From the NCBI GenBank assembly GCA_900299345.1, contig OMJM01000071.1, positions 1,985 to 65,984 on the forward strand: DNA of 64,000 nucleotides, written 5' to 3'. Source of the DNA: a bacterium (GTDB lineage Bacteria; Fibrobacterota; Fibrobacteria; UBA11236). Made by a program: the position numbers and the translations under genes. Below are positions 1 to 62,982 of the stretch, one piece after another. Each line of letters starts with the position of its first letter. The first letter of the stretch is position 1. Below the pieces are notes generated by a model, which searched no databases, was not told the DNA's origin, and was given only the letters and a program-made list of their open reading frames with translations.

Positions 1-792
1 TTGTGGCTCAGCCTGCAAAGCGACGAACTGTTCGGAGACAGCGTCTTTGTGGGGCTCTCTCACTACCGCGATCTGATGCATGACGGACGCTTCTGGCATG
101 CGTTGCGCAACACGTTCGTTTATTGCGGAATGGCCGTGATACTGATACCTCCATTTGCGCTTGCACTCGCTCATCTCTTGAAACACACATATCGCCGTTC
201 ACGCGGCCTCATTCAATTCTGCCTGATGATGCCCGGTCTGACACCGCCGCTCGTACTGGCATTGCTGTATGTCCTGGTATTCAATGGTCCACACGGGTTA
301 CTCAATCGGACGTTTCTTCATCCCTTAGGACTTCCGGACATCGACTGGATTCGCGATCCGCGCTTCATCAAGGCCAGTCTGGTTTTGCTTGCTTTGTGGC
401 GCTGGACAGGATTCATCACACTGCTCTTCCTTTCCGGACTCGAAGGCATCCCCCGCTCCTATTACGATACCACGCGCGCCGAAGGCGCATCGGCATGGCA
501 ATTGTTTCGTCATGTGACACTTCCCTTGTTGCGACCCGTGACGGCTTTCGTGGCCGCGCTTCTTTTTCTCGATGCATTCGCTCTGTTCGAAGGCGCCTAC
601 GTTCTGCTGGGGGGCTCCGGCGGCTCGCTGGATGCCGGTCTGTTGCTCATTTCCTATTCCTATCTGACCGCATTCACACTCGGCAGCTTTGGATCCGCGG
701 CGGCCATCGCCTTTGCGTCGCTTCCCTTGCTCATGACCGCGCTATGGTTCATCTTGTCACAGGGGCGCCACCGCAAACCAGCTGCGGCGTAA
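1..792 (+). CDS. Carbohydrate ABC transporter permease (MalF/UgpA-like), 5'-truncated by the window edge
   Basis: Multiple TM segments; EAA-loop-like 'GLEGIPRSYYDTTRAEGASAWQLFRHVTLPLL'; reading frame is open from base 1. Confidence 0.9.
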   Translation: MWLSLQSDELFGDSVFVGLSHYRDLMHDGRFWHALRNTFVYCGMAVILIPPFALALAHLLKHTYRRSRGLIQFCLMMPGLTPPLVLALLYVLVFNGPHGLLNRTFLHPLGLPDIDWIRDPRFIKASLVLLALWRWTGFITLLFLSGLEGIPRSYYDTTRAEGASAWQLFRHVTLPLLRPVTAFVAALLFLDAFALFEGAYVLLGGSGGSLDAGLLLISYSYLTAFTLGSFGSAAAIAFASLPLLMTALWFILSQGRHRKPAAA

Positions 793-799
793 AACTGTT

Positions 800-1630
800 A
801 TGAACCACTCGCGCAAACACATTTCTTCACTGTCAGCAACCGCCGCCCTGGCATTCCTCTGCGTGATTTTCGCCTATCCCTTTGTGTGGATGTTCTGCTC
901 AGGCTTCAAAACCGACGCGGAAGTTTTCGCGCTTTTTCCGCTCCTCCCTCAACACTTCGACCTTGTTCACTATCGCGGTTTGCTTTCCGGAGCCTGGATT
1001 CCTTATCCTCGTTTGTTCCTGAATTCGCTGTTCATCGCATCCCTTGAAACCATCTTCGCGACCGCCTTTGCCTGTGGTGCGGGATATGTATTCGCAAAAT
1101 TCGATTTCCGTTTTAAAAAAACTCTTTTCATTTTGGCAGTGGCCGCCGTGCTCGTTCCACGGCAAGCGCTCGCGCTGCCTTTATTCGTCTGGATGAACAA
1201 ACTTTCCCTGCTGGACACGCCTTGGTCCGTCATTCTTCCCGGAACCGCGAGCGGCGTGGGTTTTCTCTATTTCATCGCGGTGTTCCGCCGGCTTCCCGAT
1301 CCCCTGCTTGACATGGCGCGCTGTGAAGGCGCCGGAGAATACCGTGTTTTTCTTTCCACTCTTCCACTGATAAAACCCGCATTGATTGCATTTGCCCTCA
1401 TCCAATTTGTGCTTTGCTGGCAGGAGCATTTGATTCCGCTCATCATGCTCTCCACGCAAACGCATTTGACAGTGACCTTGGGCCTGGCCAGCCTCAACGC
1501 CGGTAATCTGCGCGTACCTTACGGACTTCTGCTGGCAGGCTGCACGCTCACCTTAATCCCAACGGCCTTGTTCTTCGTTCTCGCACACCGCCATTTTCGA
1601 TCGGCTCTCGCAAGCCTCACCGAGGCATGA
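800..1630 (+). CDS. Carbohydrate ABC transporter permease (MalG/UgpE-like)
   Basis: 'AGYVFAKFDF' and EAA-like 'LPDPLLDMARCEGAGEYRVF'; 7 nt after the previous stop. Confidence 0.9.
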   Translation: MNHSRKHISSLSATAALAFLCVIFAYPFVWMFCSGFKTDAEVFALFPLLPQHFDLVHYRGLLSGAWIPYPRLFLNSLFIASLETIFATAFACGAGYVFAKFDFRFKKTLFILAVAAVLVPRQALALPLFVWMNKLSLLDTPWSVILPGTASGVGFLYFIAVFRRLPDPLLDMARCEGAGEYRVFLSTLPLIKPALIAFALIQFVLCWQEHLIPLIMLSTQTHLTVTLGLASLNAGNLRVPYGLLLAGCTLTLIPTALFFVLAHRHFRSALASLTEA

Positions 1631-1631
1631 C

Positions 1632-2714
1632 ATGACGCGCCTTACCATTGAAAACGTCTCCAAGCTATATCCCGGTGGTGTCGCCGCACTAAAGGACTTT
1701 TCTCTCGAGATTGAAGAGGGGGAGCTTGTTGCCATTGTAGGACCGTCTGGCTGCGGCAAATCCACATTACTGAGGATCATTGCGGGCCTCGAGGAAGAGA
1801 CCTCCGGCAAAGTCCGGATGGGAGAACGTTTCCTCACAGGATTGCCCCCCAAAGAACGCAACATTGCCGTGGTGTTTCAGAGCTACACACTCATGCCACA
1901 TCTTACAGCAGCTGAGAACATGGCTTTCGGTATGCGACTGCGGGGAACCTTTCGCAATCAACGTGAGGAAAAAATTCGCGCCATCGCAAAAACTCTCGGC
2001 ATTGAAGGCTTGCTCAATCGCTATCCTGCCGAAATCAGCGGTGGTGAACGCCAACGCGTCGCGCTGGGACGCGCCATTCTGCGCGAACCGGACGCGTTCC
2101 TTTTCGACGAGCCTCTTTCCAGCCTCGACGCACAAATGCGTTTGCAGCTTCGCGTGGAGATACAGAAACTTCACCAACGTTTGGGGACGCCGATGCTGTT
2201 CGTGACTCACGATCAAAACGAGGCGCTCGCTCTGGGTGACCGTGTAGTCGTCCTGAATCAGGGAAAGATCCAGCAAATCGCCAAACCTGATGAACTTTAT
2301 CTCAAGCCTGCCAATACGTTCGTTGCTTCTTTCATAGGTGCTCCCGGAATGAACTTGTTTCCGGGCCGTCTTGAGTCCAATGGAAACGTTCACAGGTTCG
2401 TATCCTCAAGCGTGACCTTCCCGTTGACTCCATCCCAGGCATCGACACTGCGGACTTACTCCGAAGTCGTGGCCGGTATTCGACCCGAACATTTGAATTT
2501 GTCCCACCCCCCAGATGCTGAGTTGCGAGGAACAGTTACAGCCATCGAAAAGCAATTCGATCAAACGTGCTTATACCTGGAAAATGAGAATGTCGTTTTC
2601 ACAGCAAAGGCAGCTCGTAACATTTCGTGTCATCTTGGTGATGTTCTGCAGTGGAGCGTAGCGTTAGACAACACCGCGTTTTTCGACGCGATTACAGGGG
2701 AGCTTATTTTATAG
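1632..2714 (+). CDS. Sugar ABC transporter ATP-binding protein (MalK/UgpC family)
   Basis: Walker A GPSGCGKS, signature ISGGERQR, Walker B FLFDEP, H-loop VTHDQ, C-terminal TOBE-like region. Confidence 0.95.
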   Translation: MTRLTIENVSKLYPGGVAALKDFSLEIEEGELVAIVGPSGCGKSTLLRIIAGLEEETSGKVRMGERFLTGLPPKERNIAVVFQSYTLMPHLTAAENMAFGMRLRGTFRNQREEKIRAIAKTLGIEGLLNRYPAEISGGERQRVALGRAILREPDAFLFDEPLSSLDAQMRLQLRVEIQKLHQRLGTPMLFVTHDQNEALALGDRVVVLNQGKIQQIAKPDELYLKPANTFVASFIGAPGMNLFPGRLESNGNVHRFVSSSVTFPLTPSQASTLRTYSEVVAGIRPEHLNLSHPPDAELRGTVTAIEKQFDQTCLYLENENVVFTAKAARNISCHLGDVLQWSVALDNTAFFDAITGELIL

Positions 2715-2876: not shown

Positions 2877-2936
2877 TCGTGAGGGAGTAAACAAATCCCC
2901 ATAGGGAGAGAGCACACCATGAAGGAGAAAAACATC

Positions 2937-4388
2937 ATGAAATCATGGAAATACGCGTTGGCGGCCGCGATTTTGCCCGCTTCGATTTGGTCGGCAACGA
3001 TTAGTGGTATTGTCGGAGCCCCGGCTCCCGGCACCCCGGTTGCGGGAGTGACGGTGTACCTGCGCGATGGCAACAGCACTGGCCCCAAGATCGACTCGAC
3101 CGTCAGCAGTGTCACCGGTGCGTACACGTTCTCGAACGTGGCTACAGGTGCAAAGACCTTGCAGGCTGGAAAAGCCGGCTACAACACGGTTTTTGTCCTG
3201 GTCGGCGTGAATACCGCTGGACAAACCATCACCCAAAATTTGAGCCTCACCATCAATAACAACACCTCGAGTCTCGTCGGTACGGTGCGTAAGGCATCTG
3301 ACTCGACCGTCTTGGCTGGAGTCACGGTGACCTTGTCCGGCAATGCCGAAACGGGTCGCACCAAAGTGACCGACAGCTTGGGCAACTATCGCTTTGACAG
3401 CGTGGGAACGGGAACGGGTTATACCGTCGCCGCCGCGTTGACGGGTTACAACAGCACCAGCGTGGGTGGAATCTCAGCCGCGTGGAATTCTTCCACAACG
3501 GTCGGCACGATGTACCTCACCCGCAATTTGGGCACCTTGTCTGGCACCATCCGCCGCACCGACAGCACCACGGTTCCGATTCAAGGAGCCAAGGTCGTTG
3601 TTTCCATTGCTGGCACCAAGGTGGACAGCACCACGACCGACGTGAATGGCCAGTACACCCTGACCGTGAACGCTGCTGCGTACACTGTTTCGGTGAGCAA
3701 AGCCGGGTACAAGAGCAACATCGGCATGGCAACCAAGGACACCACGGCGACCGTGACGTTTGGCAGCAACACCACGCTGAATGTGAACCTCACTCCGGCA
3801 ATTTCCACGATCACGGGTACGGTTACGCGCGGAACGACGACTCCGGCTAGCGGTGCAAAAGTGGTTTTGGCTCGTCGAATCAACAACCAGGCGGCCACCC
3901 CCTTCACCCGGCTGGATTCCACGACGACAGATGCAAACGGCATCTTCGTGTTCAGCAATTTGATCGCGGCGCAGCCTGCAACGCAAGGCCAGTACCGTTT
4001 GTTCATCACCATGACTCCGCTTGGTAGCACGGTGGATTATCCGAACGGTACGGCACAAACCAACTTAGACACGATTACTGTGGCCGTTGGTGGAACCGCG
4101 ACTCGCAATGTGACTCTGACGAACTGTGCTGTCGGCAGCACCCTTCCCGGCTGCGCTCCTGCTGGCATCCTTCCTTTGTCTTCCAGCAAATCGCAAGACA
4201 TCCGTTTCTCCACGATGGGCGACCGCCTGATTCTGGATATGGGCGTTTCCAACGCCGTCCGCACGGTTTCCATCTTCGGATTGAACGGAACGGTGCAGTA
4301 TCAGGTGAACGTCCCGGCGGGTGAATCCCAGGCTGTTGTGCCTGCGACCCTCTCCCCGGCGAACGGCTACCTGTTCATGGTCAAGTAA
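2937..4388 (+). CDS. Secreted carboxypeptidase-regulatory-like (prealbumin/CnaB-type) repeat protein with a C-terminal sorting-like domain, paralog 1
   Basis: Signal peptide MKSWKYALAAAILPASIWSA (AAGGAG RBS; alternative start 2919); about four 'tisGtV...p.aGa.V.l...TD..G.Y.f' units; ends NGYLFMVK. Confidence 0.8.
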   Translation: MKSWKYALAAAILPASIWSATISGIVGAPAPGTPVAGVTVYLRDGNSTGPKIDSTVSSVTGAYTFSNVATGAKTLQAGKAGYNTVFVLVGVNTAGQTITQNLSLTINNNTSSLVGTVRKASDSTVLAGVTVTLSGNAETGRTKVTDSLGNYRFDSVGTGTGYTVAAALTGYNSTSVGGISAAWNSSTTVGTMYLTRNLGTLSGTIRRTDSTTVPIQGAKVVVSIAGTKVDSTTTDVNGQYTLTVNAAAYTVSVSKAGYKSNIGMATKDTTATVTFGSNTTLNVNLTPAISTITGTVTRGTTTPASGAKVVLARRINNQAATPFTRLDSTTTDANGIFVFSNLIAAQPATQGQYRLFITMTPLGSTVDYPNGTAQTNLDTITVAVGGTATRNVTLTNCAVGSTLPGCAPAGILPLSSSKSQDIRFSTMGDRLILDMGVSNAVRTVSIFGLNGTVQYQVNVPAGESQAVVPATLSPANGYLFMVK

Positions 4389-4409
4389 CCAGCCTTCAAA
4401 GTGCTCTCC

Positions 4410-4443
4410 AAAAAGGCCGGTGGGATTTCCCACCGGCCTTTTT
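4410..4443 (+). terminator. Rho-independent terminator
   Basis: aaaaaGGCCGGTGGGA-tt-TCCCACCGGCCttttt, perfect stem with U-tract. Confidence 0.9.
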
Positions 4444-4544
4444 CATTTTAAAACGAGTTTTCATGCCAGTTTTTCACGGCTAATCCAAGACCGATGAGTT
4501 AGCTTTTGGTAAGCCACAACCCATCCTTAAGGGGAGAATCCATT

Positions 4545-5897
4545 ATGAAAAAGTCTTTGCTCAGTCTCTTGGCTGCTTTGGCATTTTTGCCGCTTGTCGC
4601 TGGTGCGGCAACAATCAGCGGTAACGTCACTACAGGCGGCACCACACCTGTTGTTGGTGCCAAAGTGGTCCTTATTGCGGCTGGAGTTCATGTGGACTCC
4701 GTCATGACGGATAGCGTGGGCCACTACACGTTTGACAGCACCCACGTCGGTGCGACGGGAGCCAAGCAGGTGCAAGCAAGCAAGGCTGGCATGGGAACCG
4801 TCACCAACACGGTCAACATCACCTCTGCCACTCAGGCAGCCACCTCCAACTTCAACCTCGCCGCGGGCGGAAATCTTGCCGGTACGGTGCGTAAAACGTC
4901 CGACAGCACAGTCCTCGCCGGCGCAAAGGTCGTTCTACGGCGCGGCAACACGAGTGTGGACAGTGCCATTACCAACGGCTCAGGCCAATTCACATTCAAT
5001 GATCAAGTTCCCGCGACGAACTACTCGCTTGTGACCAGTGCAGCAACATATTTCACAACGACCACGACCGTATCCATCACCGCCAATGCTTCACTCAGTG
5101 TCACGCTTTATCTGGCATTGACAGTGCCGGCGACCATCACAGGCACTGTGACGAATTCTTCGGGTGGAGCCCCCATTTCAGGCGCACTGGTGCGGCTGCG
5201 CCGTGGTTCCGCCACATCAGCCGTCGTAGACAGTGTGACGACAAACGGTTCGGGTGTTTACAGCTTCAGCGGCGTTGCACCGGGAACCCCCAATGCTTGG
5301 GTCACTGCCAGCGCAAATGGCTTCTTCAGCATCACGAACAACAACCTCACCGTGGGCAACGGAGCCACTGTCACCTCCAACTTCAGTCTTGTCATGCCAG
5401 GCCGTATCACGGGAACCGCACAGGGATACCCCGCGCCTGGCATCTTGGTGAATCTTGCCAATGCGCTGATAGTGCTTCGCCGCGGATCGGACACGGCCGC
5501 CATCAGCGACAGCACGCGTACCAACAGTTCCGGCGTTTATACGTTCAACAACCTCACCCCTGGAACGCCCAACTACTGGGTCACCATCAACAGTAACATT
5601 GGAACAGCCACCAACGCAAATGTGGCTGTGACTGCGGGTGGAACCACGACTTCCAACTTCAGTATTTCTGCCACAGCTATCGCGCGTTTGAGTAAAGAAA
5701 CAGGTGCCTTGAGCTTTTCCAAAGTCGGCAATGAGCTGTACGTCAAAATGAGTGTTTCTTCCTCAGAACGTACGGTCACAGTTTTCGGAATGAGCGGCGG
5801 AATCGCATATCACACCTCGGTTCCAGTGGGAGCATCACAAATCTCAGTTCCGGCGGTGTATGCTCCTGAAAACGGGTATCTCTTCCAAGTGAAATAG
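4545..5897 (+). CDS. Secreted carboxypeptidase-regulatory-like repeat protein, paralog 2
   Basis: GGGGAG RBS; signal peptide MKKSLLSLLAALAFLPLVAGA; four repeat units; ends NGYLFQVK. Confidence 0.8.
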   Translation: MKKSLLSLLAALAFLPLVAGAATISGNVTTGGTTPVVGAKVVLIAAGVHVDSVMTDSVGHYTFDSTHVGATGAKQVQASKAGMGTVTNTVNITSATQAATSNFNLAAGGNLAGTVRKTSDSTVLAGAKVVLRRGNTSVDSAITNGSGQFTFNDQVPATNYSLVTSAATYFTTTTTVSITANASLSVTLYLALTVPATITGTVTNSSGGAPISGALVRLRRGSATSAVVDSVTTNGSGVYSFSGVAPGTPNAWVTASANGFFSITNNNLTVGNGATVTSNFSLVMPGRITGTAQGYPAPGILVNLANALIVLRRGSDTAAISDSTRTNSSGVYTFNNLTPGTPNYWVTINSNIGTATNANVAVTAGGTTTSNFSISATAIARLSKETGALSFSKVGNELYVKMSVSSSERTVTVFGMSGGIAYHTSVPVGASQISVPAVYAPENGYLFQVK

Positions 5898-5914
5898 AAT
5901 CCCTTCGATTTTTC

Positions 5915-5947
5915 AAAAAAGCCGATGGGAATCCCATCGGCTTTTTT
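5915..5947 (+). terminator. Rho-independent terminator
   Basis: aaaaaaGCCGATGGGA-a-TCCCATCGGCtttttt. Confidence 0.9.
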
Positions 5948-5964
5948 GTTTTCATCTCAAAAAA

Positions 5965-6130
5965 CGTTATCTCCTTGCAGACTTCCGGAATTGATTTATT
6001 ACCTGAAAATAAAATCGTTATCCTATTTGAGATATTTTTTTATACAAATTCATTAAAATTTGTTCTTTATTGGAAAATTTATGTTTTTCGTTATCTAGAA
6101 AATAATGGCCGCCTCATTTACCGCGTTATC
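5965..6130. repeat. Four direct copies of CGTTATC in an AT-rich intergenic region
   Basis: Copies at 5965, 6016, 6089 and 6124; a further copy at 7195 and GTTATC at 7120. Confidence 0.6.
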
Positions 6131-6131
6131 C

Positions 6132-6165
6132 AATATGAAGAAATAAAATTGAACATCTTCATATT
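6132..6165. promoter_or_regulatory. Perfect 10-14-10 inverted repeat, candidate operator
   Basis: AATATGAAGA-N14-TCTTCATATT, about 55 nt upstream of the paralog 3 start. Confidence 0.45.
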
Positions 6166-6219
6166 TGTTGAGTCTGATAATAAGTTTTGTATCAAACCAA
6201 CCGGAGAAGGAGAGATCTC

Positions 6220-7035
6220 ATGAAAATTGCCAAATATCTGTTAGCTGCCATCCTCATCCCCGCCTCTTTGTGGGCTGGGACGCTTAGCGGGACTGTAAGC
6301 GCCGCAAGTGGAGGCGCGCCAATTGCCAACGCTTTGGTAGTGCTGAGAACTACTAACTCGGCCACCGGAACTGTGTATGACAGTGTTCGCTCCAATGCTG
6401 CTGGTTTGTATACCTTCTCTGGCCTTTCCGCGGCGACGTACTATGTCACCACCACAGCCACGGGATATGTCACCATTTCATTGAGTTCACATGCGGTCAC
6501 AGCCACCGGCACCACGACCTACAACATCTCGATGACGGCTAGCGTTGGAACAATCACCGGCGTTGCGCGCAGCAATGGCAATCCGATCGTGGGACTTACT
6601 GTGACACTTCGTCGCAGTTCCGCTACCAGTGACCCAGTTGCAACCACAACCACTGATTCCACGGGACGCTACACGTTCAGTAACCAAGCGTCCGGGACCC
6701 CCAACTACTACGTCACCATCTTCAATCCGGCCACGAACCAGACGGTCACGAACGGCAACCTAGCCGTCACAAACGGCGGAACCACTACCTCGAACTTCCT
6801 GCTTAGCGCCACAGCCTTGCAATCGTTTTCCAAAACGTCCTCTTCCATGCGTTGGTCCCGTTCAGGTGATCGCCTGACACTGGATTTGGGCGCATCCAAC
6901 ACAACGCGATTGGTGTCGGTCTACGGCCTGAATGGCACCGTACTCTACAGCGTTTTCGTGAACGCAGGGGAATCCCGCGCAGTGATCCCCGCCGCCTTCG
7001 CTCCGAGCAACGGCTATCTGTTCCAAGTGAAATAA
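6220..7035 (+). CDS. Secreted carboxypeptidase-regulatory-like repeat protein, paralog 3
   Basis: AAGGAG RBS; signal peptide MKIAKYLLAAILIPASLWAG; two repeat units; ends NGYLFQVK. Confidence 0.8.
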   Translation: MKIAKYLLAAILIPASLWAGTLSGTVSAASGGAPIANALVVLRTTNSATGTVYDSVRSNAAGLYTFSGLSAATYYVTTTATGYVTISLSSHAVTATGTTTYNISMTASVGTITGVARSNGNPIVGLTVTLRRSSATSDPVATTTTDSTGRYTFSNQASGTPNYYVTIFNPATNQTVTNGNLAVTNGGTTTSNFLLSATALQSFSKTSSSMRWSRSGDRLTLDLGASNTTRLVSVYGLNGTVLYSVFVNAGESRAVIPAAFAPSNGYLFQVK

Positions 7036-7062
7036 TTGCCAGCTAACAGTGTTTGCTCTTTC

Positions 7063-7092
7063 AGGGTCGGTGGGAAACCATCGACCCTTTTT
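7063..7092 (+). terminator. Rho-independent terminator
   Basis: AGGGTCGGTGG-gaaa-CCATCGACCCT followed by a T-run. Confidence 0.85.
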
Positions 7093-7319
7093 ATTTATGC
7101 TCCGGAAGAGGTAATTATTGTTATCGAATAAATAAGAATAAGCATTTGATAAGTCTATTTTTTTGGATAAATAATGGTTTTTTATTGGTTTTTTCGTTAT
7201 CGGATTAAGAAATAGACGAAAATATTCCTCACGATTTTCCAAATAAGAACGGTAGGTTAACCCCAACGAGTAATCTCGCGGAAACCCTCACCTTTCAAAT
7301 CGCATCAACGGAGGAAATC

Positions 7320-9275
7320 ATGCAACGAATCAGAAAAGCTCCATCTCTCGCAGGCAGTCTCTTCTTTTTGCTGGCGTTATTCCTGCTGACTTCAGCTGGC
7401 GCCACCACGATTTCAGGGACAGTGAGAAACGCCGCCGATAGTACTCCTGTTGTTGGTGCGAAGGTTGTGTTGATCCAGGGACCGACACGCGTTGATTCCG
7501 CCACGACGGACGCGTCGGGGAACTATTCACTGCTTAACGTCACGGGTGGCAACAAGCAACTGCAAACCAGCGCCACAGGTTATCAAACCGCCACGACGAA
7601 TACAACTGTGGATACGACAGTGGCGACGCTTACCGTGAACATCAACCTCACCGTCACGGTGCCTGGAAGCATCAGTGGCCTTGTAAGAAGCGCAGCGGAT
7701 AGCACGACGCCGATCGCCGGGGCGAAGCTCTATCTACGCCGAACCTCCGCCACCAGCGCCATCATCGACAGCGCACTCACGGATTCCACCGGCTTTTACG
7801 CCTTCTCCGATCTCGTGCCTGGAACCCCCAACTACTATCTCGCGGTCACCGCAACCGGATACGTCAATGGCACAAGCAATAATATTGCGGTGGGTAACGG
7901 AGCTTCCGTGACTCGCAACTTCTACTTGAATTCGCCTGGCAGCATCAGCGGCCTTGTAAGAAACGCCGCGGATAGCACGACACCGATTGCGGGAGCGAAG
8001 GTTTATCTGCGCCGAACCTCCGCGACCAGCACCATCATCGACAGTATCACCACAGATTCCACGGGCGCGTACGCTTTCTCCAACCTGGCTCCAGGAACCC
8101 CCAACTACTACATCACTGCCAGTGCATCGGGCTTCTTAAGCATCACCAATGGCAACGTCGCACTTCCCAACGGAGGGGCGATAATTTCCAACTTCTATCT
8201 GCAAACGCTCGTTCCCGGTAGCATCTCAGGCACCGTGAGAAGCGCGGCGGACAGCACAACACCCATCGCCGGAGCGAAAGTCTATCTGCGCCGAACCTCC
8301 GCCACCAGCGCTATCATCGACAGCACCACAACGGATGCACTCGGGGATTACCTGTTCGACAGCCTGACGCCAGGAACGCCAAACTACTGGATCACGGCCA
8401 GCGCTGCAGGATTCCAAAGCGCGACGAACGCCAACGTGGCCATCGCCAATGGCGAGGGCGTGACTTCCAATCTGTATCTGGTGGTGACCGTTCCCGGGAC
8501 TATCAGCGGAACAGTGAGAAGTGCTGTAGACAGCATCACTCCCATTGTCGGCGCCAAGGTCTATCTCCGCCGCACCTCCGCCACCAGTGCCATCATTGAC
8601 AGCGCCACCACTGATTCCACCGGTGCTTATGCGCTCAGCAACCTAGCACCGGGAACCCCCAATTATTATCTGGCGGTCACCGCAGCGGGATACGTCAACG
8701 GTGCAAGCAATAACATCGCGATAGGCAACGGCGCCACCGTCACACGTAATTTCTACCTCGCCGTGGCCGTTCCGGGCAGCATCACTGGAATCGTGAGACG
8801 CGCCACTGACAGCACCGTCATTGCCGGAGCCAAGATTTATCTCCGCCGCTCTTCCGCGACTAGTGCCATCATCGACAGTGCCACTACCGATTCCGCCGGT
8901 GTCTACACCTTCAGCAACGTGGCTTCCGGAACACCGAATTACTGGATTACCATCAGTGTAACCGGCTACCTTGATAGCACAATTACGAATGTCGCCGTCG
9001 GCAACGGCGCCACCGTTACCCGCAACGTGGTGATGACCTTGGTCAGTAGTGCGCTGAAACAGGCCGCTACACATTCAGCAAACAATTTCCGCATCGTCCG
9101 GGCTGGGAACCTGCTGTGGGTGAACATCGAGGCATCGGGAACACCGAGACGCTTGAAGATTTACGACATGACCGGCAGCGTGCGTCACAGCGTATCGATA
9201 TCCGCCGGAGAAAATCGGGTTTCTGTGCCGGCGGCGTTCTCTCCTTCCAATGGTTTTATCCTGCAAGTGAAGTAA
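7320..9275 (+). CDS. Secreted carboxypeptidase-regulatory-like repeat protein, paralog 4 (six units)
   Basis: GGAGG RBS; signal peptide; five near-identical 91-93 aa repeats plus a divergent first unit; ends NGFILQVK. Confidence 0.8.
   Translation: MQRIRKAPSLAGSLFFLLALFLLTSAGATTISGTVRNAADSTPVVGAKVVLIQGPTRVDSATTDASGNYSLLNVTGGNKQLQTSATGYQTATTNTTVDTTVATLTVNINLTVTVPGSISGLVRSAADSTTPIAGAKLYLRRTSATSAIIDSALTDSTGFYAFSDLVPGTPNYYLAVTATGYVNGTSNNIAVGNGASVTRNFYLNSPGSISGLVRNAADSTTPIAGAKVYLRRTSATSTIIDSITTDSTGAYAFSNLAPGTPNYYITASASGFLSITNGNVALPNGGAIISNFYLQTLVPGSISGTVRSAADSTTPIAGAKVYLRRTSATSAIIDSTTTDALGDYLFDSLTPGTPNYWITASAAGFQSATNANVAIANGEGVTSNLYLVVTVPGTISGTVRSAVDSITPIVGAKVYLRRTSATSAIIDSATTDSTGAYALSNLAPGTPNYYLAVTAAGYVNGASNNIAIGNGATVTRNFYLAVAVPGSITGIVRRATDSTVIAGAKIYLRRSSATSAIIDSATTDSAGVYTFSNVASGTPNYWITISVTGYLDSTITNVAVGNGATVTRNVVMTLVSSALKQAATHSANNFRIVRAGNLLWVNIEASGTPRRLKIYDMTGSVRHSVSISAGENRVSVPAAFSPSNGFILQVK
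7662..9041 (+). repeat. Five tandem intragenic repeats of 273-279 bp
   Basis: Units start at 7662, 7935, 8214, 8493 and 8772 (PGsIsG.VR.A.DS...GAK.YLRR.SATS.IIDS). Confidence 0.9.
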
Positions 9276-9296
9276 TCTCGTCCACCTGATACGGAC

Positions 9297-9333
9297 AAAA
9301 CAGCCGGTGGTTAAAATTCACCGGCTGTTTCTT
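9297..9333. terminator. Probable bidirectional terminator
   Basis: aaaCAGCCGGTG-gttaaaatt-CACCGGCTGttt between convergent genes, overlapping the GATase stop. Confidence 0.8.
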
Positions 9334-10039
9334 TGGGATCAGACCTGCGCATCAATTCATGGCAGAGCGAAGCAACGAAACCATTGTTGGCTTTGAAATC
9401 CTCTGAGTGCCCTCTCATCTTTTCCGGCGTTTGCACATAACGCCCCCCCGCCTGAACTTCCTCGTCACCGTTTTCAATCCATGAGGAAATCACTTCAGGA
9501 AGAATCTCGGGATGAAATTGAAGTCCCACGGCCTGCTCGTTCCATACAAATCCCTGATGAGCGCAGCCTTCCGACTGGAATAGGAGCCGTGCACCGGAAG
9601 GGATGGAAAAAGTGTCTCCATGCCAGTGAAAGGTGTTGAACCGTTCCGGAAAAATTTTGGAAACCCATGAGGCTGAACCTTCCGAAACCTTCTCGACGGG
9701 GAACCAACCGATTTCCTTGTGCCCGTTGCGGGTCACTTGCCCACCCAATACTTCAGCCAGAAGTTGCGAGCCCAGACAGATGCCGAGGACCGGCCTTCCG
9801 GCCTCGAGCGCACGCTTGATCGCGTCTTTTTCCTGCTTGAGCCACGGAAATTTTTCTTCGTCATAGGTTCCCATCGGGCCGCCCATGATTACCAGCATGT
9901 CGAACGCGTCCGGAGCAGACGATGTTTCACCTTGAAACCAATGCGTATGGTTTACAGATGCCCCTGCTTCGCGGAACACGGATTCCATGGAACCCAATCC
10001 CTCGAAGGGGACATGTTGAAACACCTGAACGCGGAACAT
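9311..10039 (-). CDS. Type 1 glutamine amidotransferase (GMP-synthase-like, stand-alone)
   Basis: 'GICLGSQ' nucleophile elbow, 'QFHPE' His-Glu, 'HWHGD'. Confidence 0.9.
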   Translation of the reverse strand: MFRVQVFQHVPFEGLGSMESVFREAGASVNHTHWFQGETSSAPDAFDMLVIMGGPMGTYDEEKFPWLKQEKDAIKRALEAGRPVLGICLGSQLLAEVLGGQVTRNGHKEIGWFPVEKVSEGSASWVSKIFPERFNTFHWHGDTFSIPSGARLLFQSEGCAHQGFVWNEQAVGLQFHPEILPEVISSWIENGDEEVQAGGRYVQTPEKMRGHSEDFKANNGFVASLCHELMRRSDPKETAGEF

Positions 10040-10079
10040 TATGCTGTTGCCAATCTACATTGTTGCCTCCGGAATCCAG

Positions 10080-12500
10080 ATGCTGTCAAAAATCGGGAGT
10101 TGCGCAATGCTGGCCATTGGGTGGAGTTCGGCCGCCGGGGTCATTCATTTGAATGCAACGTTGACCGATTCCGCTTTTTCCGTTTCGGGAAAATACCAGA
10201 TCGAAGTATTGGAAACGGGCGACACCTTGCGAATCGAACCCGGTCAAAAATTTTCATTCGCACTTCCTCCCGATTCACTGTGGACCTTGTGCGCCAAAAA
10301 AGGCGACACGGCGGGCGCCTACGAGAAATGTTTTGAAATTCGACGTCCCGGGAAAGATTCGGTGATTGAAGCGAAGCTTGAAGGAACGGGCGCATTTTTG
10401 GCCCAACCTGAAGTCGATCTCGCCACAGCGGCAACCGTGGCCTCCGCAAACGTTACGACCGAGGAAGGTCCCGCAGGAGATACTGAAACAGAATCCGTCC
10501 GCTTGCAGAAGGTAATGTTGCGCGCCCAACGCACACCCAAGCGCGCTCTGGGTCGACAGACCGTTTCCGCCAAGCTGATCAAGCGCATGCCCGGCCTGGC
10601 TGAAGCGGACGTGATCCGTTCGATCCAAGGCCTGCCCGGCGTGGTGTCAAGTTCTGATTTCTCCACCAAGATCTACGTGCGCGGCGGCGGCAGCGATCAG
10701 AACCTCATCCTCTTCGACAATGCACCGGTCTATTCTCCGGTGCATTTCTTTGGATTGTTCTCCACGTTTCTCGTCAACGGCATTCAAGATGTGACCTTTT
10801 ACAAGAGCGGATTCCCCGCAGAATATGGAAACCGGCTTTCCTCGGTGCTCGACGTGCGATCACGGCGTGGCGGGCGGGATAGTTCGAATTCCCTGTTCAA
10901 AGGTTCGTCCGTACAGATCAGCACTGTGGCCACCTCGGCTCACACTGAAGGCCATCAAGGACCGGTGCGCTGGCTGTGGGCGGGGCGCACGACGTACATC
11001 AAACAGGTGGTGGACTTCCTTAGGGAGCGCGGCGCCATTGATTTGGTACTCGACTATTACTTCTACGACCTTCAGGGCAACATGGCCTATGCGTTGGGTC
11101 CCGATGCCGAAGCCTCCTTCTCGGTGTATCAAGGGCGTGACCGCCTGAATTTCGATCCTTTCCTTGTGGAATGGGGGAACACCGTCATTCCCATAAATTT
11201 CAAGTGGAAACACTCGGATGGCTGGACATATCGTACCACTCTTGCCTACAGCCTGATGAGTCAGACTTTCGGCCTCACCAGCATCTTCGAGTTCTATAAC
11301 CGCATTGCCACATGGCAGGCCAAGCAGAGCGCCGAATACTCAGGCCTGGAGGGGCACCGTTTGACCTTTGGCGAAGAGGCCAGCGGGATGCAAACCATTT
11401 TCCGGAACAGCCAGTATGTGGCCCGGCTGACGTTCCGTGATCAGACGGATTTTCTCCTGGTCAGCCTCTTCATGCAGGACAAATGGTCTCCCGGAAAATG
11501 GGAGATCACGCCGGGTCTCCGACTGAACTATGCTTCGACGCTGGAAGCTCCTCAGGCGGAACCACGTCTGTCTGTGAAGTATTCCCTGCCCGCCAAACAG
11601 ACCTTGGACTTCCACGCCGGATACTATCTCCAGTACATCAACTCCATCTTGTTCGGGGATCAGGAAAGCATCAATGAGTTTTACTACCCGGCCAAGAAGG
11701 TGAAGTATCGCACCGTCGAACCCACGGCATCGGTGCTATTGGCTGCGGGATATTCAAAGGAACAGATCTTCAATCAATTCGACTTCTCGCTCGAAGGATA
11801 TTATAAGTCGCTGTATCACCTGCTGATCTTCGCCCCCAACGAAAAACCCGATTCCATCCTGTTCGATACGCAAAGGGATTTGGGCGATCTTTTCGACGAG
11901 GCGGAAGGGTATTCCTTGGGATACGAAGCCTCGTTGCGCCGTCCCGTGGGAACGTTGTTCGGAGGATTGAGCTACTCGCACGGTTATTCGGTGATTCGTG
12001 AAAACGTTTTCCGGGAACCCTATTACCCGAAGTGGCATCAACCACACAGTTTCAAGGCGGATCTGGCTGTCAACTGGAAAGGTGCGGACGGTATCTGGGC
12101 ATCGAAGAAAAAAGGAGGGTATTTCCGATCCTCTACGCAGGTGAAATACGCCACGGGCCTTCCCTACACCGAATATTCCGGATACGCTCCATCCCACCTC
12201 ATCGATCAAAACGATGGCCGCATGGCTGGAGGTCCAAATCCGGAATTCGAGGGTAACCTGAATGTGATGCGCGCGGGCTACAACGAGGCGGTCGTTCCGC
12301 CCTATTTCCGCTGGGACGTAAAACCCGTGGATTGGGGGCGGGAAGGAAAATGGAATTTTTCCTTTACCATTCTCAATGTCACCAATCACAAGAATGTGTT
12401 CTTCTATACGTATGATCGGCAGCAAAATCCTCCGGAACGAATCACCATCACTCAATTTCCCTTCTTCCCTTTTCTGTTGAGCTATGAGTACACGTTCTAG
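10080..12500 (+). CDS. TonB-dependent receptor (plug plus barrel)
   Basis: Plug motifs 'DVIRSIQGLPGV', 'VRGGGSDQNLILFDNAPVYSPVHFFGLFS'; C-terminal F (SYEYTF); start chosen at 10080. Confidence 0.85.
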   Translation: MLSKIGSCAMLAIGWSSAAGVIHLNATLTDSAFSVSGKYQIEVLETGDTLRIEPGQKFSFALPPDSLWTLCAKKGDTAGAYEKCFEIRRPGKDSVIEAKLEGTGAFLAQPEVDLATAATVASANVTTEEGPAGDTETESVRLQKVMLRAQRTPKRALGRQTVSAKLIKRMPGLAEADVIRSIQGLPGVVSSSDFSTKIYVRGGGSDQNLILFDNAPVYSPVHFFGLFSTFLVNGIQDVTFYKSGFPAEYGNRLSSVLDVRSRRGGRDSSNSLFKGSSVQISTVATSAHTEGHQGPVRWLWAGRTTYIKQVVDFLRERGAIDLVLDYYFYDLQGNMAYALGPDAEASFSVYQGRDRLNFDPFLVEWGNTVIPINFKWKHSDGWTYRTTLAYSLMSQTFGLTSIFEFYNRIATWQAKQSAEYSGLEGHRLTFGEEASGMQTIFRNSQYVARLTFRDQTDFLLVSLFMQDKWSPGKWEITPGLRLNYASTLEAPQAEPRLSVKYSLPAKQTLDFHAGYYLQYINSILFGDQESINEFYYPAKKVKYRTVEPTASVLLAAGYSKEQIFNQFDFSLEGYYKSLYHLLIFAPNEKPDSILFDTQRDLGDLFDEAEGYSLGYEASLRRPVGTLFGGLSYSHGYSVIRENVFREPYYPKWHQPHSFKADLAVNWKGADGIWASKKKGGYFRSSTQVKYATGLPYTEYSGYAPSHLIDQNDGRMAGGPNPEFEGNLNVMRAGYNEAVVPPYFRWDVKPVDWGREGKWNFSFTILNVTNHKNVFFYTYDRQQNPPERITITQFPFFPFLLSYEYTF

Positions 12501-59134: not shown

Positions 59135-59235
59135 CCCGGATTTTGGGCCGTTTGCACAAGGCGCCCCTGTCAAATCGGGGGTATATTTTAGTGCCGGGTC
59201 ATTTAGGAATTGTCTTCTGCGAAAGGTTTGTTTTC

Positions 59236-61128
59236 ATGTCCATGCGTTCCTTTTTTTCGAAAATATCCGCGGGTCTTGCGCTCTGCGCTCCACTGCTCCT
59301 TCAAGCCGCCACCCCGCTAACGACTGTTCATCCCAGCTGGACGCTTTATAACCTTCGCCCCTCCCAGACTTCGAGCTTCCGTCCAATGGTCGGTGGCATG
59401 GATTTTCTTTCAGATGGCCGTCTGGTCATCGGTCATTGGGGGGGGACGCGTACGGCATGCTGCCCTTCCAACACCAACTTCGGCGGACGGCAGTACACCG
59501 GCAAGATTTACATCCTGAGCGGAGTCACTGGCACCACACCCAGTGTGGTGATCGACAGTTCCTTCGCCACCGGACTCGAAGACGTCATGGGCCTCACGGT
59601 GATACGGGATACGATTTACGTCTCGGGCGGCAACAACATCATCCGCCTGATCGACTCCGACCACAATGGCGTCGCCGATCGCAAGGACACTTTGTTCGAA
59701 CTCCCTGGAACCCCGCAGATTAGTTCCACCAGCACCACCGCGCCAGGCCCCGGCCCTTACAACGACTCCCTGCATCCGACCAAGGGACGCAGCGAATGGC
59801 TGTACGGATTACTCGCGCGCAATGACACTTTCTTCGTCAATCCATCTTCGATGTACAACGCCAACAACATCCAGCAGGTGAACCCCTATCGGGGAACCTT
59901 TCTCGCCGTCACGCGCGGGAATGGAGTGCGGGGGAATTATCAAATTCGTTCCATGGGATTGCGCCACCCCACAGGTCTGACCTTCGGACCCGAAGGCACG
60001 ATCTGGACCTGCGAGACACAAGGCCATTGGGTCCCGACCGACAAATTGATCCAGTTGAAGACCGGTGCGTTCTATGGCTTCCATCACACCCCCGCAGAAT
60101 CGTGGGACAACATGACAGAAACACCTGCCGCGGTATTTTTGCCGCAGGAAGGTAGTGGTGGCAGCGGTGCCAAGGACGCCACCGGCATTTTCGCCGATTC
60201 TCCGGGCCAGCCGTTCTATCTCACCGATGGGCCTTATGCCGGCCAATTCCTGATGGGCGACGTAAGCTGGGGTGGCATACAACGCTTCTTCGTGGAAAAA
60301 GTCGGCAATGATTATCAAGGCGCAGGTTTTGTATTCACCGGTGGACTGGAATCCGGCGTATATCGCATGGCGCAAGGCCCTGATGGCATGCTGTATCTGG
60401 GCATGATCGGCACGTCCAATGACTGGAGCTGGAACGGTCAGTACTACGGATTGCAAAAGATCAAGTACAATGGCACACCCACCTTTGAAATGCTGGCGGT
60501 GCGATCACGCGCTGCGGGCATGGAAATCGAATTCACAAAACCCGTGGACACGCTTACCGCCAGGATCGCCAGCAATTACACCGTGCAGACCTACTACTAC
60601 ACACCGACATCGTCATATGGCGGCACCAAGGCGGGCACCACTCCGCTCACAGTCACCCAGGGTACGATTCAATTTTCTCCCGATCTCAAGAGCGTGTATC
60701 TCCCACTTTCCGGTCTGGTGGCGCGCACCGGCATTCTGCATCGCATCGTGGAGATTACTCTCGCCAATGGGTTGAAATCCTCCACGGGGGATACTTCGTG
60801 GACCAAAAAAGCCTACTACTCCCTGAACGCCATCTCCCCTAGTGCGCCGTTCTCCACAACCACGGCCATCGATCCGAAGATCGTGCGGGCGGACATGCTG
60901 AAACAATTGCGCTGCAAATTGGCGTCGGACAACCTCGTAGTGAAGCTTCCGTTCGCGGGCGCCTACGATCTCCGCCTGCTCGACGCGCGTGGCGCAGTTC
61001 TCACATCCACTCAGGGCCGCGGCGCCGAAGAAAAAAGCCTGCCCCTGCGCAACGCGCACGGAAAATTCGTTGTGGTTGAAGCTTATGGAGATGGCATGAA
61101 TCTGCGCCGTACGGTGGCACTGCCTTAG
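59236..61128 (+). CDS. Secreted beta-propeller protein (glucose/sorbosone-dehydrogenase-like) with an Ig-like domain and a T9SS-like CTD
   Basis: Signal peptide; 'GLRHPTGL', 'TQGHW', 'GPDGMLY' blade motifs; C-terminal 'LLDARG'. Confidence 0.6.
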   Translation: MSMRSFFSKISAGLALCAPLLLQAATPLTTVHPSWTLYNLRPSQTSSFRPMVGGMDFLSDGRLVIGHWGGTRTACCPSNTNFGGRQYTGKIYILSGVTGTTPSVVIDSSFATGLEDVMGLTVIRDTIYVSGGNNIIRLIDSDHNGVADRKDTLFELPGTPQISSTSTTAPGPGPYNDSLHPTKGRSEWLYGLLARNDTFFVNPSSMYNANNIQQVNPYRGTFLAVTRGNGVRGNYQIRSMGLRHPTGLTFGPEGTIWTCETQGHWVPTDKLIQLKTGAFYGFHHTPAESWDNMTETPAAVFLPQEGSGGSGAKDATGIFADSPGQPFYLTDGPYAGQFLMGDVSWGGIQRFFVEKVGNDYQGAGFVFTGGLESGVYRMAQGPDGMLYLGMIGTSNDWSWNGQYYGLQKIKYNGTPTFEMLAVRSRAAGMEIEFTKPVDTLTARIASNYTVQTYYYTPTSSYGGTKAGTTPLTVTQGTIQFSPDLKSVYLPLSGLVARTGILHRIVEITLANGLKSSTGDTSWTKKAYYSLNAISPSAPFSTTTAIDPKIVRADMLKQLRCKLASDNLVVKLPFAGAYDLRLLDARGAVLTSTQGRGAEEKSLPLRNAHGKFVVVEAYGDGMNLRRTVALP

Positions 61129-61176: not shown

Positions 61177-62982
61177 ATGAAACTTTCTTCACGAATCCTG
61201 CTTCTGATTCCTTGTCTGGCAGTGTCGTCTTTCGCGGACTTCACCTATCCCGGCTGTTCCGACATGACGGGCAACGATTTCACCATCTCCACCCTTGTCA
61301 GTAATTCCACCGACACCACGATCAAGGAGCCATCCAAGATGGCTTTGTTCACCAACGCGCAGGGAAACGTGGATGTTTATTTCGTGCAACGCTATGGCAA
61401 GGTGCGCAAGTACGATGGCACGGCCAAAACCCTCTCCCTGGTTGGGAATTTCAACTTCGGCAGTGGCAGCAGCATGACCGACACAACGCAGATCTACAAC
61501 GGGTCCGCCAGCTCCAGCGAAGGGCTGCAGGGTATCGCGCTGGACCCTAACTTCAACACCAACCATTGGATGTACCTGTACTTCGTGATGAAAAGTGTCT
61601 GGCGCATCACCCGCTACACGGTGAACAACAATACGCTCGACATGAACAGTGGAAAAACAATCCTCCGTTTCACGCACACCTCCTTCGGACAACACGCCGG
61701 CTCCGCACTGCGCTTCGATCCGGACGGCAATCTGTGGATCACGGTGGCAGACGACGGTGGCACGAACTGGCCTGCCGATCAAACCGTCCCCTATCAGGCT
61801 GCAAACAGCAACAAGTATTTCGGAAAGATCCTCCGTATCAAACCGCGGCCCATTGCGGATGCAACTCCCGCCCCGGCCCCGGGATTGGGTTCCACCTATG
61901 ATGTTCCCGCCGGAAATCTACGCCAGAGTTTTTTCAGCATTGGCGGGCCCGCAGGTCAGGATACCAACAAAATCCTTCCCGAAATCTATGTGATGGGAAA
62001 CCGCAATCCCTATTCCATCGCCCTCGACACGGTGCGCAAAGGCATGGCATGGGGCGACGTGGGCCCGGACAGTTACGGCGGAACGCAACCCGATTCCCTG
62101 TGGACCGAGGAACTTAACTTCACCACCCAGCCCGGGTTCTTCGGCTGGCCGCTCTGGGCCGGCAAAAAAACACCTATGCCCACCGCCGGCTGGTCGGGCT
62201 ATACGGCACAACCGCCGTCTTCCAACGGTGGCGTCGGCGGCACCATATCCGCGCCAGTGAATAACCGTACCGACAACACAGGTATCACCAATCTTCCACC
62301 CGCGCAACCCGCCATCATCAACTATGTGAAGAACTGCGCCATCACTGGGCCGATCTACTACTACAACGCCGCCAGCACCTCCACGGTCAAATTCCCCCCG
62401 CACTTGAGCGGCAAGTGGTTCGTGGGCGATTTCAACGCCTCGTGGATCAACGCGGTGGAACTCAACCCGGCGGGCACGGCGGTCTTGAGCATCAAGAAGA
62501 TGTTTTCGGTCTCCGCCGGTGGAAGCCCCACTTTGCTGCCGCCCGCCACTGCCGGAAATTCGTTGAAGCAAATCGCCACCACGGCGATGAACTCGTCGAA
62601 CTCCCTGCTCGACATGCAGATGGGGTCCGACGGTTCGTTGTACATCATGAACTATTCGGGATACCGGACCTTCGACACGAAGTCAGGGCTGATGCGGATC
62701 ACCTACAACGGGTCCTGCCTCCCGGCGACGCCGATCCTGCCGCAGGAGCAGGCGATTCGCGATGCACGGAAGTTGCTGGAAGTAAAAGGTCTGGATGTTT
62801 CCATCCTGACTTCGGGGAATCACACTTTGGAAGTCCGGGACATCACCGGTAAACAACTGGCATCCCGCAAAGGCCAGGGTTTCACGCACTATACGTTCAA
62901 CGAACTGCGCAACCCCGGTGTGTATCTGCTGTACTTCTCGTCGCCTGAAGGACGGCGGGTGCAGAAGATTATGCGGCAGTAG
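61177..62982 (+). CDS. Secreted PQQ-dependent sugar dehydrogenase-like (GSDH) protein with a T9SS-like CTD
   Basis: 'EGLQGIALDPNF', 'H.GSALRFDPDGNLWITVAD', 'GKILRI', 'GNRNPY', 'WGDVGPD', 'EELN'; CTD 'RDITGK...PGVY...QKI'. Confidence 0.75.
   Translation: MKLSSRILLLIPCLAVSSFADFTYPGCSDMTGNDFTISTLVSNSTDTTIKEPSKMALFTNAQGNVDVYFVQRYGKVRKYDGTAKTLSLVGNFNFGSGSSMTDTTQIYNGSASSSEGLQGIALDPNFNTNHWMYLYFVMKSVWRITRYTVNNNTLDMNSGKTILRFTHTSFGQHAGSALRFDPDGNLWITVADDGGTNWPADQTVPYQAANSNKYFGKILRIKPRPIADATPAPAPGLGSTYDVPAGNLRQSFFSIGGPAGQDTNKILPEIYVMGNRNPYSIALDTVRKGMAWGDVGPDSYGGTQPDSLWTEELNFTTQPGFFGWPLWAGKKTPMPTAGWSGYTAQPPSSNGGVGGTISAPVNNRTDNTGITNLPPAQPAIINYVKNCAITGPIYYYNAASTSTVKFPPHLSGKWFVGDFNASWINAVELNPAGTAVLSIKKMFSVSAGGSPTLLPPATAGNSLKQIATTAMNSSNSLLDMQMGSDGSLYIMNYSGYRTFDTKSGLMRITYNGSCLPATPILPQEQAIRDARKLLEVKGLDVSILTSGNHTLEVRDITGKQLASRKGQGFTHYTFNELRNPGVYLLYFSSPEGRRVQKIMRQ

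Follow-up and report, generated by a model that had tools for sequence, protein, structure and literature searches.

In the type IX secretion systems (T9SSs) studied so far, the last strand of the type-A C-terminal domain (CTD), with its conserved Lys, is regarded as the central element that directs export. The signal of HBP35 resides in the last 22 residues, β6 plus β7, and export is abolished when the last six residues of PorU are replaced or when RgpB lacks its last two residues and PPAD its last four (PMC11285876, PMC11969387). CryoEM of the F. johnsoniae translocon indicates that CTDs are recognised chiefly by shape and hydrophobic contacts, the sole near-invariant contact residue being a Lys near the C-terminus (PMC10994853). 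In Prevotella intermedia, natural CTDs with three or five strands are processed (PMC11969387). A CTD family that occurs in nature without β7, and is nevertheless conserved and highly expressed, would be a test of what the translocon reads: overall shape and a C-terminal Lys, as in the F. johnsoniae cryoEM view, versus β7 itself. Here we examined such a candidate family in the genome of a freshwater Fibrobacterota bacterium.

Four tandem genes with a shared C-terminal domain

The DNA analysed is a stretch of 64,000 nucleotides, referred to as the window. Four tandem open reading frames on its plus strand all close with one alignable domain of about 65-70 amino acids (Table 1). The longest frames of paralogs 1, 2, and 3 open at 2919, TTG 4506, and TTG 6187, respectively. 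The likely starts are ATG 2937 for paralog 1, which has AAGGAG upstream, ATG 4545 for paralog 2, and ATG 6220 for paralog 3, the last because RNA begins at about 6210. A fifth copy in the same genome (C31:17866-19395) ends in NGYLLLLK.

Table 1 Features of the window, in window coordinates.
Feature	Coordinates	Strand	Description
Paralog 1	2937..4388	+	signal peptide, 4 CarboxypepD_reg repeats, truncated CTD-like domain
Paralog 1, linker and truncated CTD-like domain	4173..4388	+	ends SPANGYLFMVK, then TAA
Terminator 3' of paralog 1	4415..4443	+	intrinsic hairpin and T-run
Paralog 2	4545..5897	+	signal peptide, CarboxypepD_reg repeats, truncated CTD-like domain
Paralog 2, linker and truncated CTD-like domain	5682..5897	+	ends APENGYLFQVK, then TAG
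Terminator 3' of paralog 2	5921..5947	+	intrinsic hairpin
Paralog 3	6220..7035	+	signal peptide, 2 CarboxypepD_reg repeats, truncated CTD-like domain
Paralog 3, linker and truncated CTD-like domain	6820..7035	+	ends NGYLFQVK; modelled with AlphaFold2
Terminator 3' of paralog 3	7064..7092	+	intrinsic hairpin
Paralog 4	7320..9275	+	signal peptide, 6 CarboxypepD_reg repeats, truncated CTD-like domain
Paralog 4, linker and truncated CTD-like domain	9060..9275	+	ends SPSNGFILQVK, then TAA
Terminator 3' of paralog 4	9301..9334	+	intrinsic hairpin
Comparator tail, 661-aa propeller protein (59143-61128)	60900..61128	+	canonical length by alignment, ends ...GKFVVVEAYGDGMNLRRTVALP
Comparator CTD, 601-aa GSDH-like propeller protein (61177-62982)	62797..62982	+	canonical full-length type-A, ends ...PGVYLLYFSSPEGRRVQKIMRQ

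RNA contigs from four metatranscriptomes cover paralog 1 over 2906-4431 at a depth of 15-46, with the flanking genes at about zero, and stop near 4431, within the terminator. Those of paralog 2 begin at 4536-4555 and are lower in depth, those of paralog 3 finish at 7078-7112, at its terminator, and a single contig spans paralog 4 from 7278 to 9365. Each of the four genes is a transcription unit of its own with strong expression, as would suit a surface coat or adhesin made in large amounts.

Relation to canonical type-A CTDs

The curated models miss the domain. The four full proteins have no match to PF18962 or TIGR04183 at E ≤ 1. The domain alone matches nothing in Pfam, PF18962 included, and only one of the five copies matches TIGR04183, at E 0.14. 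Type-B CTD models (TIGR04131 / PF13585) gave no match in Pfam and NCBIfam scans, and no adjoining PorP/SprF-like gene is a conserved neighbour across nine loci.

We compared the family profile by hhalign with a template of 38 TIGR04183-defined CTDs from the same genome (89 columns). The two align with a probability of 94.9% (E 4.7e-8), while a CarboxypepD_reg repeat used as a control reached 1%. The alignment is colinear, with columns 4-72 of the family against 4-74 of the template, and leaves the last 15 template columns, corresponding to β7 and motif E, unmatched. Canonical CTDs are weak matches of the family HMM (18-35 bits). These matches are ordinary CTDs that continue for 11-33 residues beyond the aligned part, e.g. 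...GGYVVEVRVGGKTFSRPVALF.

Motif B is present in the β3-β4 loop as [VI][FY][GDNS][LM]xG, in which the Gly never varies. At motif D, the GxY of the canonical profile is aligned with NG[YF]. Motif E, the C-terminal strand β7 with its conserved Lys, is absent, and a conserved terminal Lys or Arg stands at the end of β6. The domain is basic (mean pI 9.8), as are the canonical CTDs of the same genome, and lies at the extreme C-terminus, behind a linker, on proteins with visible N-terminal signal peptides. The preliminary description had called it a truncated CTD subtype. Homology, colinearity, and the shortfall of about 15 columns agree with this, and since the curated models pass over the domain, scoring against TIGR04183 and PF18962 did not make it an ordinary full-length CTD.

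The same description held that both propeller proteins of the window keep the last strand. For the 61177-62982 protein this is borne out by the long tail and by TIGR04183 (22.8 bits, and 26 bits at C71:64781-64963). The 59143-61128 protein agrees in tail length by alignment, but has no TIGR04183 match at E ≤ 0.01.

Conserved end point across the family

A word-index homologue search with the CTD region returned no matches, and the family surfaced in an exhaustive HMM search of 1.84 billion proteins, with 47 cluster representatives carrying the domain. In 42 of the 47, the exact last profile position is the end of the protein. The domain stops five residues past the motif-D aromatic, with Lys as the last residue in the window paralogs and the fifth copy. 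Among 35 aligned sequences the last residue is Lys in 33 and Arg in two. By comparison, the tail past this aromatic is typically 17-20 residues in canonical CTDs, as measured on the 31 CTDs of the same genome in which motif D could be placed. The initial observation that the four paralogs share an NG[YF] domain stopping about five residues later is therefore confirmed, both by alignment and by the 42 clusters. Large repeat proteins such as P0004 and P0035 were rejected as relatives, as their scores are summed per-repeat noise of 8 bits.

The truncation is kept across genera, and the β5-β6 loop, PAxFAPxNG, is unusually strongly conserved. Tandem arrays of four to five copies per locus occur here and in one relative, and some genomes carry a single copy. 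On balance, the truncated CTD appears to be specific to one taxonomic family of Fibrobacterota.

Predicted structure

AlphaFold2, run with the 35-sequence alignment on a 165-aa construct of paralog 3, gave a domain with a pLDDT of 92.6 and six β-strands (residues 105-109, 112-116, 124-129, 135-141, 147-151, and 161-164), preceded by a floppy linker (pLDDT 54). A single-sequence prediction of the whole 282-aa protein was poor (pLDDT 50). The domain is thus predicted to have strands β1-β6 rather than the canonical seven of the 3+4 β-sandwich. In a Foldseek search of the PDB with the two-domain model, the transthyretin-like passenger domain dominated the matches, so the structural ranking does not speak for the CTD alone. 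The cargo matches are β-sandwich domains as found in adhesins, pilins, and S-layers. A profile search of PDB sequences gave only a FlgD Ig-like match, which was not significant (E 0.57).

Cargo and T9SS genes of the genome

The usual cargo is a tandem series of transthyretin-like CarboxypepD_reg repeats, joined to the domain by a linker rich in Ser, Thr, and Ala. The range is narrow and consists mainly of this one repeat type, although in P0032 and L030 the tag directly follows a PF11999 ice-binding-like domain. The genome contains a SprA gene (475 bits; 578 with in-frame neighbours), a PorU-like gene (374 bits, under the cut-off of 420), a PorV-like gene (88 bits, under the cut-off of 250), and 39 TIGR04183 matches to canonical CTDs. 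The GldL and GldM models had no match in the genome, nor could control genomes match them. A weak GldK-like match (74 bits, an FGE-type lipoprotein) stands alone and was rejected as part of a gldKLMN operon.

A candidate export signal without β7

We lean towards reading the domain as a type-A CTD variant that lacks β7 yet still directs export or attachment by the T9SS, its Lys having moved to the new C-terminus. It would keep β1-β6, including the motif-B loop [FY][GDN][LM]xG and the NG[YF] of motif D, and would have lost β7 entirely, as the alignment and the model together suggest. Sec would carry the proteins over the inner membrane by their N-terminal signal peptides. The SprA-PorV translocon, whose CTD pocket is plastic and shape-selective, could then take up the folded six-stranded domain on its flexible linker. 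The terminal Lys would do the work of the Lys that ordinary CTDs conserve near their C-terminus. The cargo would reach the cell surface or the outside, possibly with cleavage of the linker by a PorU-like sortase.

The profile homology, the conserved end point, the six-stranded model, signal peptides, more than one cargo type, T9SS genes, basic charge, a genuine stop, and strong transcription count for this reading, as do the published work on shape recognition and the processing of CTDs with fewer strands. We would put it slightly ahead of even. Counting against it, β7 and the C-terminal motif are judged the most important part of the signal in the studied systems. The opposite reduction seen in short Prevotella CTDs, the failure of the curated models, and the narrow cargo were also weighed against it, as were the Gld results, although the GldL and GldM controls could not match either.

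It is unlikely, but worth considering, that the domain descends from a CTD and is no longer, or no longer only, a translocon signal. Its β6 edge would be completed in trans by a donor strand from another subunit, PorV, or an outer-membrane anchor, polymerising or anchoring a surface layer or fibre. The missing strand is the edge of the four-stranded sheet β4-β3-β6-β7 (PMC11285876), so its absence leaves the β6 edge free. Tandem arrays, strong transcription, cargo folds like those of surface proteins, and the unusual conservation of the β5-β6 loop would all suit such an assembly. However, in nine loci the genes beside family members included no conserved candidate for a partner, a chaperone, or an usher, and the alignments contain no conserved donor-like segment. 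The linker and the mature N-terminus are variable or simply correspond to strand 1 of a CarboxypepD_reg domain; the six-stranded domain is modelled with confidence by AlphaFold2 as a monomer; and single-copy genomes occur. A bolder version, in which the Ig fold is incomplete by design and receives its missing strand after export from the subunit next to it, from PorV, or from an anchor in the outer membrane, making the tag a self-assembly or anchoring joint of a surface coat, seems very improbable. The earlier proposal of different routing or donor-strand-like completion has so far gained no support from the partner genes, the donor segments, or the monomer model.

We also consider it quite unlikely that the proteins are not T9SS cargo at all, but periplasmic or released by another route, with the module a generic small β-sandwich whose CTD likeness has no functional meaning. 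CarboxypepD_reg domains do also form the periplasm-facing N-terminal extensions of TonB-dependent receptors. The curated CTD models have no match, the missing element is required experimentally in P. gingivalis (PMC11285876), and GldL and GldM were not detected, though here the controls could not match either. However, the profile match is specific to CTDs (94.9% versus 1% for the control sandwich) and colinear over β1-β6. In addition, the domain is strictly C-terminal, borne on a flexible linker, and basic, and its passengers belong to two or more types that are not related to each other, the ice-binding-like domain being one. This is the behaviour expected of a sorting tag.

Finally, an artefact has practically no chance of being the explanation, whether the genes were pseudogenes cut short, the stop wrongly called, or β7 restored by an overlooked frameshift or by readthrough. 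The end point is identical in 42 of 47 clusters, which come from many samples and span several genera. TAA, TAG, and TGA are all in use as stops, terminator hairpins lie 20-30 nt downstream, and no downstream frame encodes a β7-like strand. The RNA contigs match the DNA at 100% identity, no letters being changed, missing, or added; the frames and the contigs together also rule out editing.

Implications

As the curated HMMs miss the domain, a kind of probable Fibrobacterota cargo goes unseen when cargo is predicted by TIGR04183 and PF18962. Where transcript data were examined, in a single genome, four genes of this kind have transcript levels well in excess of the adjacent genes. Should the domain not be a T9SS signal, it documents the reuse of a sorting domain for another purpose. 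If completion in trans were true, it would be a new coupling of T9SS export to surface-layer assembly without PorU-type glycan linkage, and the tag would hold together a surface coat that ranks among the most strongly transcribed in these freshwater Fibrobacterota.

Comparison with known systems

Among the closest known systems is the T9SS type-A CTD (TIGR04183 Por_Secre_tail / PF18962; structures of RgpB, HBP35, PorZ, PorU, and mirolase). Both sit at the extreme C-terminus of Sec-signal proteins, separated from the rest by a flexible linker, and both appear as a small basic Ig-like β-sandwich with the motif B loop, the motif D aromatic, and a near-invariant Lys near the C-terminus, which in the truncated domain is the last residue, at the end of β6. 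The canonical CTD has seven strands, whereas six are predicted here, with β7 and motif E (about 13-15 residues) missing. The truncated domain also differs in having NG[YF] in place of GxY at motif D, in the conserved PAxFAPxNG loop, in its invisibility to curated HMMs, and in its narrow cargo.

Fewer than seven strands are likewise present in the five-stranded CTD of HBP35 and in the Prevotella intermedia CTDs of short and medium length (PMC11969387). These natural type-A CTDs still allow cleavage and glycan attachment, which shows that the signal tolerates strand loss. However, the reduction is the opposite one. In the short Prevotella CTDs, what remains is strands 3, 6, and 7, with motifs B, D, and E, and strands 1, 2, 4, and 5 are gone (PMC11969387); the truncated family has 1-6 and lacks 7. 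Strand 7 is retained by every known functional CTD.

Within the same phylum, the basic terminal domain of Fibrobacter succinogenes (BTD/Fpm-1; PMC6851124) is also basic and C-terminal on secreted proteins. Both domains are proposed T9SS signals. BTD/Fpm-1 overlaps TIGR04183 matches, is full length, and is found on glycoside hydrolases (PMC6851124). It belongs to another sequence family than the truncated domain.

Donor-strand-complemented pilins, of the chaperone-usher type and the Bacteroidia type V pili (FimA/Mfa1), similarly have an Ig-like fold without a terminal edge strand, and this shared feature is the source of the donor-strand idea in the preliminary description. No chaperone, usher, donor segment, or sequence relation of the pilin kind was found for the truncated domain. 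In the pilins the Ig fold is the body of the subunit, whereas here it is a small tag that closes a multi-domain protein.

A shared C-terminal domain that stops early

Four paralogous, co-oriented genes occupy 2.9-9.3 kb of the window, each encoding a signal peptide followed by 2-6 transthyretin-like CarboxypepD_reg (PF13620) repeats. A terminal stretch of about 70 residues can be aligned across all four paralogs, and in each the stop codon comes immediately after the ending listed in the table, five residues past NG[YF]. The preliminary description was correct in seeing here a shared, non-canonical terminal domain, which we call the truncated CTD. A fifth copy lies outside the window in the same genome (G000). 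ATG starts were indicated for all four genes by Shine-Dalgarno-like sequences together with the N-termini of homologues and the 5' ends of the RNA. The longest-ORF starts of paralogs 1-3 are probably wrong, because each indicated ATG has a GGAG-type ribosome-binding site, agrees with the N-termini of homologues and falls a short way inside the 5' end of the RNA.

Features of the window, its genome (G000) and other loci; positions without a prefix are window positions
Feature	Location	Indicated ATG start	Detail
ABC-transporter genes	1-2714		flanking gene
Paralog 1	2919-4388 (longest ORF)	2937	ending NGYLFMVK
Paralog 2	4506-5897 (longest ORF)	4545	ending NGYLFQVK
Paralog 3	6187-7035 (longest ORF)	6220	ending NGYLFQVK
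Paralog 4	7320-9275 (longest ORF)	7320	ending NGFILQVK
Amidotransferase	9311-10039		flanking gene
TonB-dependent receptor	10041-12500		flanking gene
RNA contigs (examples)	2906-4431, 6210-7112, 7278-9365		
Fifth copy	G000:C31:17866-19395		ending NGYLLLLK
SprA translocon	G000		475 bits (578 with neighbours in frame)
PorU-like sortase	G000		374 bits, nearly whole model, below 420 cut-off
PorV-like barrel, best match	G000:C44:2295-3113 (-)		88 bits, below cut-off
TIGR04183 (type-A CTD) matches	G000		39, including propeller protein 61177-62982
GldK-like match	G000:C28:25383-26447		FGE-type lipoprotein
Internal TIGR04183-like segment	G000:C22:28774-28908 (-)		...GPGVYFLRVELDGSSYTHRLL
N-terminal CTD-like module	L020:1252-3162		
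Ice-binding-like gene trio	L030:5292-9115 (genome G038, contig C4)		
Broken truncated-CTD match	L009 (genome G076, contig C39:15040-15216)		one TGA and two TAA codons

Four aquatic metatranscriptomes yielded RNA contigs that are 100% identical to the window, with zero substituted, inserted or deleted letters. They span each paralog as a separate unit and end near terminators. Depth reaches 15-46 for gene 1 and 4-26 for genes 3 and 4, with gene 1 highest and gene 2 lowest across 2906-9365, whereas the flanking genes stay at about 0-1; contig depth is a crude measure, and this contrast recurs in all four runs.

An exhaustive HMM search over 1.84 billion representative proteins found 47 clusters carrying the truncated CTD. 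All but five stop exactly at the last profile position (42/47), and the others add 1-6 residues, none of them β7-like. The last residue is Lys in 33 of 35 aligned sequences and Arg in the other two. The domain occurs in 13 of 32 genomes of the taxonomic family, which represent four of its six genera and carry 1-8 copies each, with no strong match in the remaining phylum sample. The genes close with TAA, TAG or TGA, no β7-like strand is encoded in the downstream frames, and a GC-rich hairpin with a T-run lies within about 30 nt 3' of all four window genes. The recurrent end point, the mixed stops, the missing downstream β7, the terminators and the RNA contigs matching DNA together rule out an artefact, a pseudogene or recoding. 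In a sister genus, a separate truncated-CTD match broken by in-frame stops (L009) is probably a decayed copy.

CarboxypepD_reg repeats are the passenger in most of these proteins. In one public protein (P0032) the domain directly follows a PF11999 ice-binding-like domain, at locus L030 it follows an ice-binding-like domain and repeats, and a few proteins have unannotated N-terminal regions. The L030 locus holds three adjoining ice-binding-like (PF11999-type) genes, and it is the middle one that carries the CarboxypepD_reg repeats and truncated CTD. Of the other two, the first terminates in a short and degenerate tail, and the third is lipoprotein-like and tailless.

Relation to canonical T9SS CTDs

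The domain does not score as an ordinary full-length T9SS CTD. PF18962 matches neither the full paralogs nor their isolated tails, and TIGR04183 reaches one of five isolated tails, at E 0.14. An HMM built from the tails recovers its own five copies at 65-126 bits and then canonical CTDs, at about 17-35 bits according to the search used. These canonical CTDs continue for 11-33 residues beyond the aligned part, as in ...AKGGYVVEV-RVGGKTFSRPVALF on contig C83 of G000. Profile-profile comparison of a truncated-CTD alignment (35-44 sequences) with 38 TIGR04183-defined CTDs of G000 gave a probability of 94.7-94.9% and E of about 5e-8, against 1% for a CarboxypepD_reg repeat used as control. When the threshold was relaxed, columns 4-72 of the truncated CTD aligned colinearly with columns 4-74 of the 89 canonical ones, and the final 15 canonical columns were left unmatched. 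In the truncated CTD five residues follow the motif-D aromatic, compared with typically 17-20 in the canonical CTDs of G000.

AlphaFold2 predicted the last repeat plus tail (35 sequences) with a pLDDT of 92.6; some 10 linker residues, modelled at low confidence, precede six strands. Canonical CTDs form a 3+4 sandwich with sheets β5-β2-β1 and β4-β3-β6-β7 (PMC11285876), and by this topology the absent part is therefore the edge strand β7, bearer of "motif C-t."/motif E. The proposed truncated subtype is supported: this domain family is conserved and expressed, sits strictly at the C-terminus, is homologous to type-A CTDs and lacks β7.

Secretion genes of the host genome

The G000 assembly comprises 91 contigs totalling 2.24 Mb, with an estimated completeness of 100%. 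Uncultured "Fibrobacteres/Fibrobacterota bacterium" MAGs are its nearest named relatives, and the sequence occurs in DNA and RNA runs from aquatic or freshwater metagenomes. Searches with the flavobacterial models for GldL (TIGR03513) and GldM (TIGR03517) found nothing in G000, negatives that carry no weight because these models could not match any control genome; the sole GldK-like match stands alone outside any gldKLMN operon. The motor may be either very divergent in this lineage or organised differently. The best PorV-like match sits in an 818-aa open frame, more than twice the 367-position PorV model, which may be a fusion or extended protein. On contig C22, a TIGR04183-like segment is not C-terminal and is followed by about 440 enzyme-domain-like residues; a comparable N-terminal module at locus L020 precedes about 500 residues.

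Possible function

We lean towards the truncated CTD still acting as a putative T9SS signal. Its position, linker, charge (mean pI 9.8, similar to canonical CTDs of G000) and modular attachment to two types of passenger fit a sorting tag, and G000 has SprA, PorU-like and PorV-like genes. In F. johnsoniae, cryo-EM found that CTDs are recognised by shape, through plastic hydrophobic contacts in the translocon pocket, and that a single contacting residue, a Lys near the C-terminus, is near-invariant (PMC10994853); the truncated CTD ends on a near-invariant Lys. Prevotella CTDs with fewer strands can also function (PMC11969387). Two points argue against a signal role: the strands that these reduced CTDs retain are exactly β3, β6 and β7, and P. 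gingivalis requires β7 and the C-terminal residues (PMC11285876 and works cited there).

The domain might instead be completed in trans by a partner's donor strand, as first suggested, or serve in anchoring. The edge position of β7 and the tandem, highly expressed gene arrays make this idea appealing, but neither a donor segment nor a partner gene was found, and no neighbour was constant across nine loci. We consider such a role unlikely. A role outside the T9SS is slightly less likely still.

The truncated CTD is a natural case for testing how little a T9SS signal can consist of, and it reveals a blind spot of HMM-based cargo prediction. We found no description of a β7-less CTD variant in the literature searched. 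The BTD/Fpm-1 domain of Fibrobacter has its full length (PMC6851124), and reduced Prevotella CTDs keep the β7 that the truncated CTD lacks. The closest known system is the type-A CTD, from which it differs in three defining features, namely the score with curated HMMs, the count of seven strands and the presence of motif E; we therefore class it as a β7-less variant rather than a type-A member.
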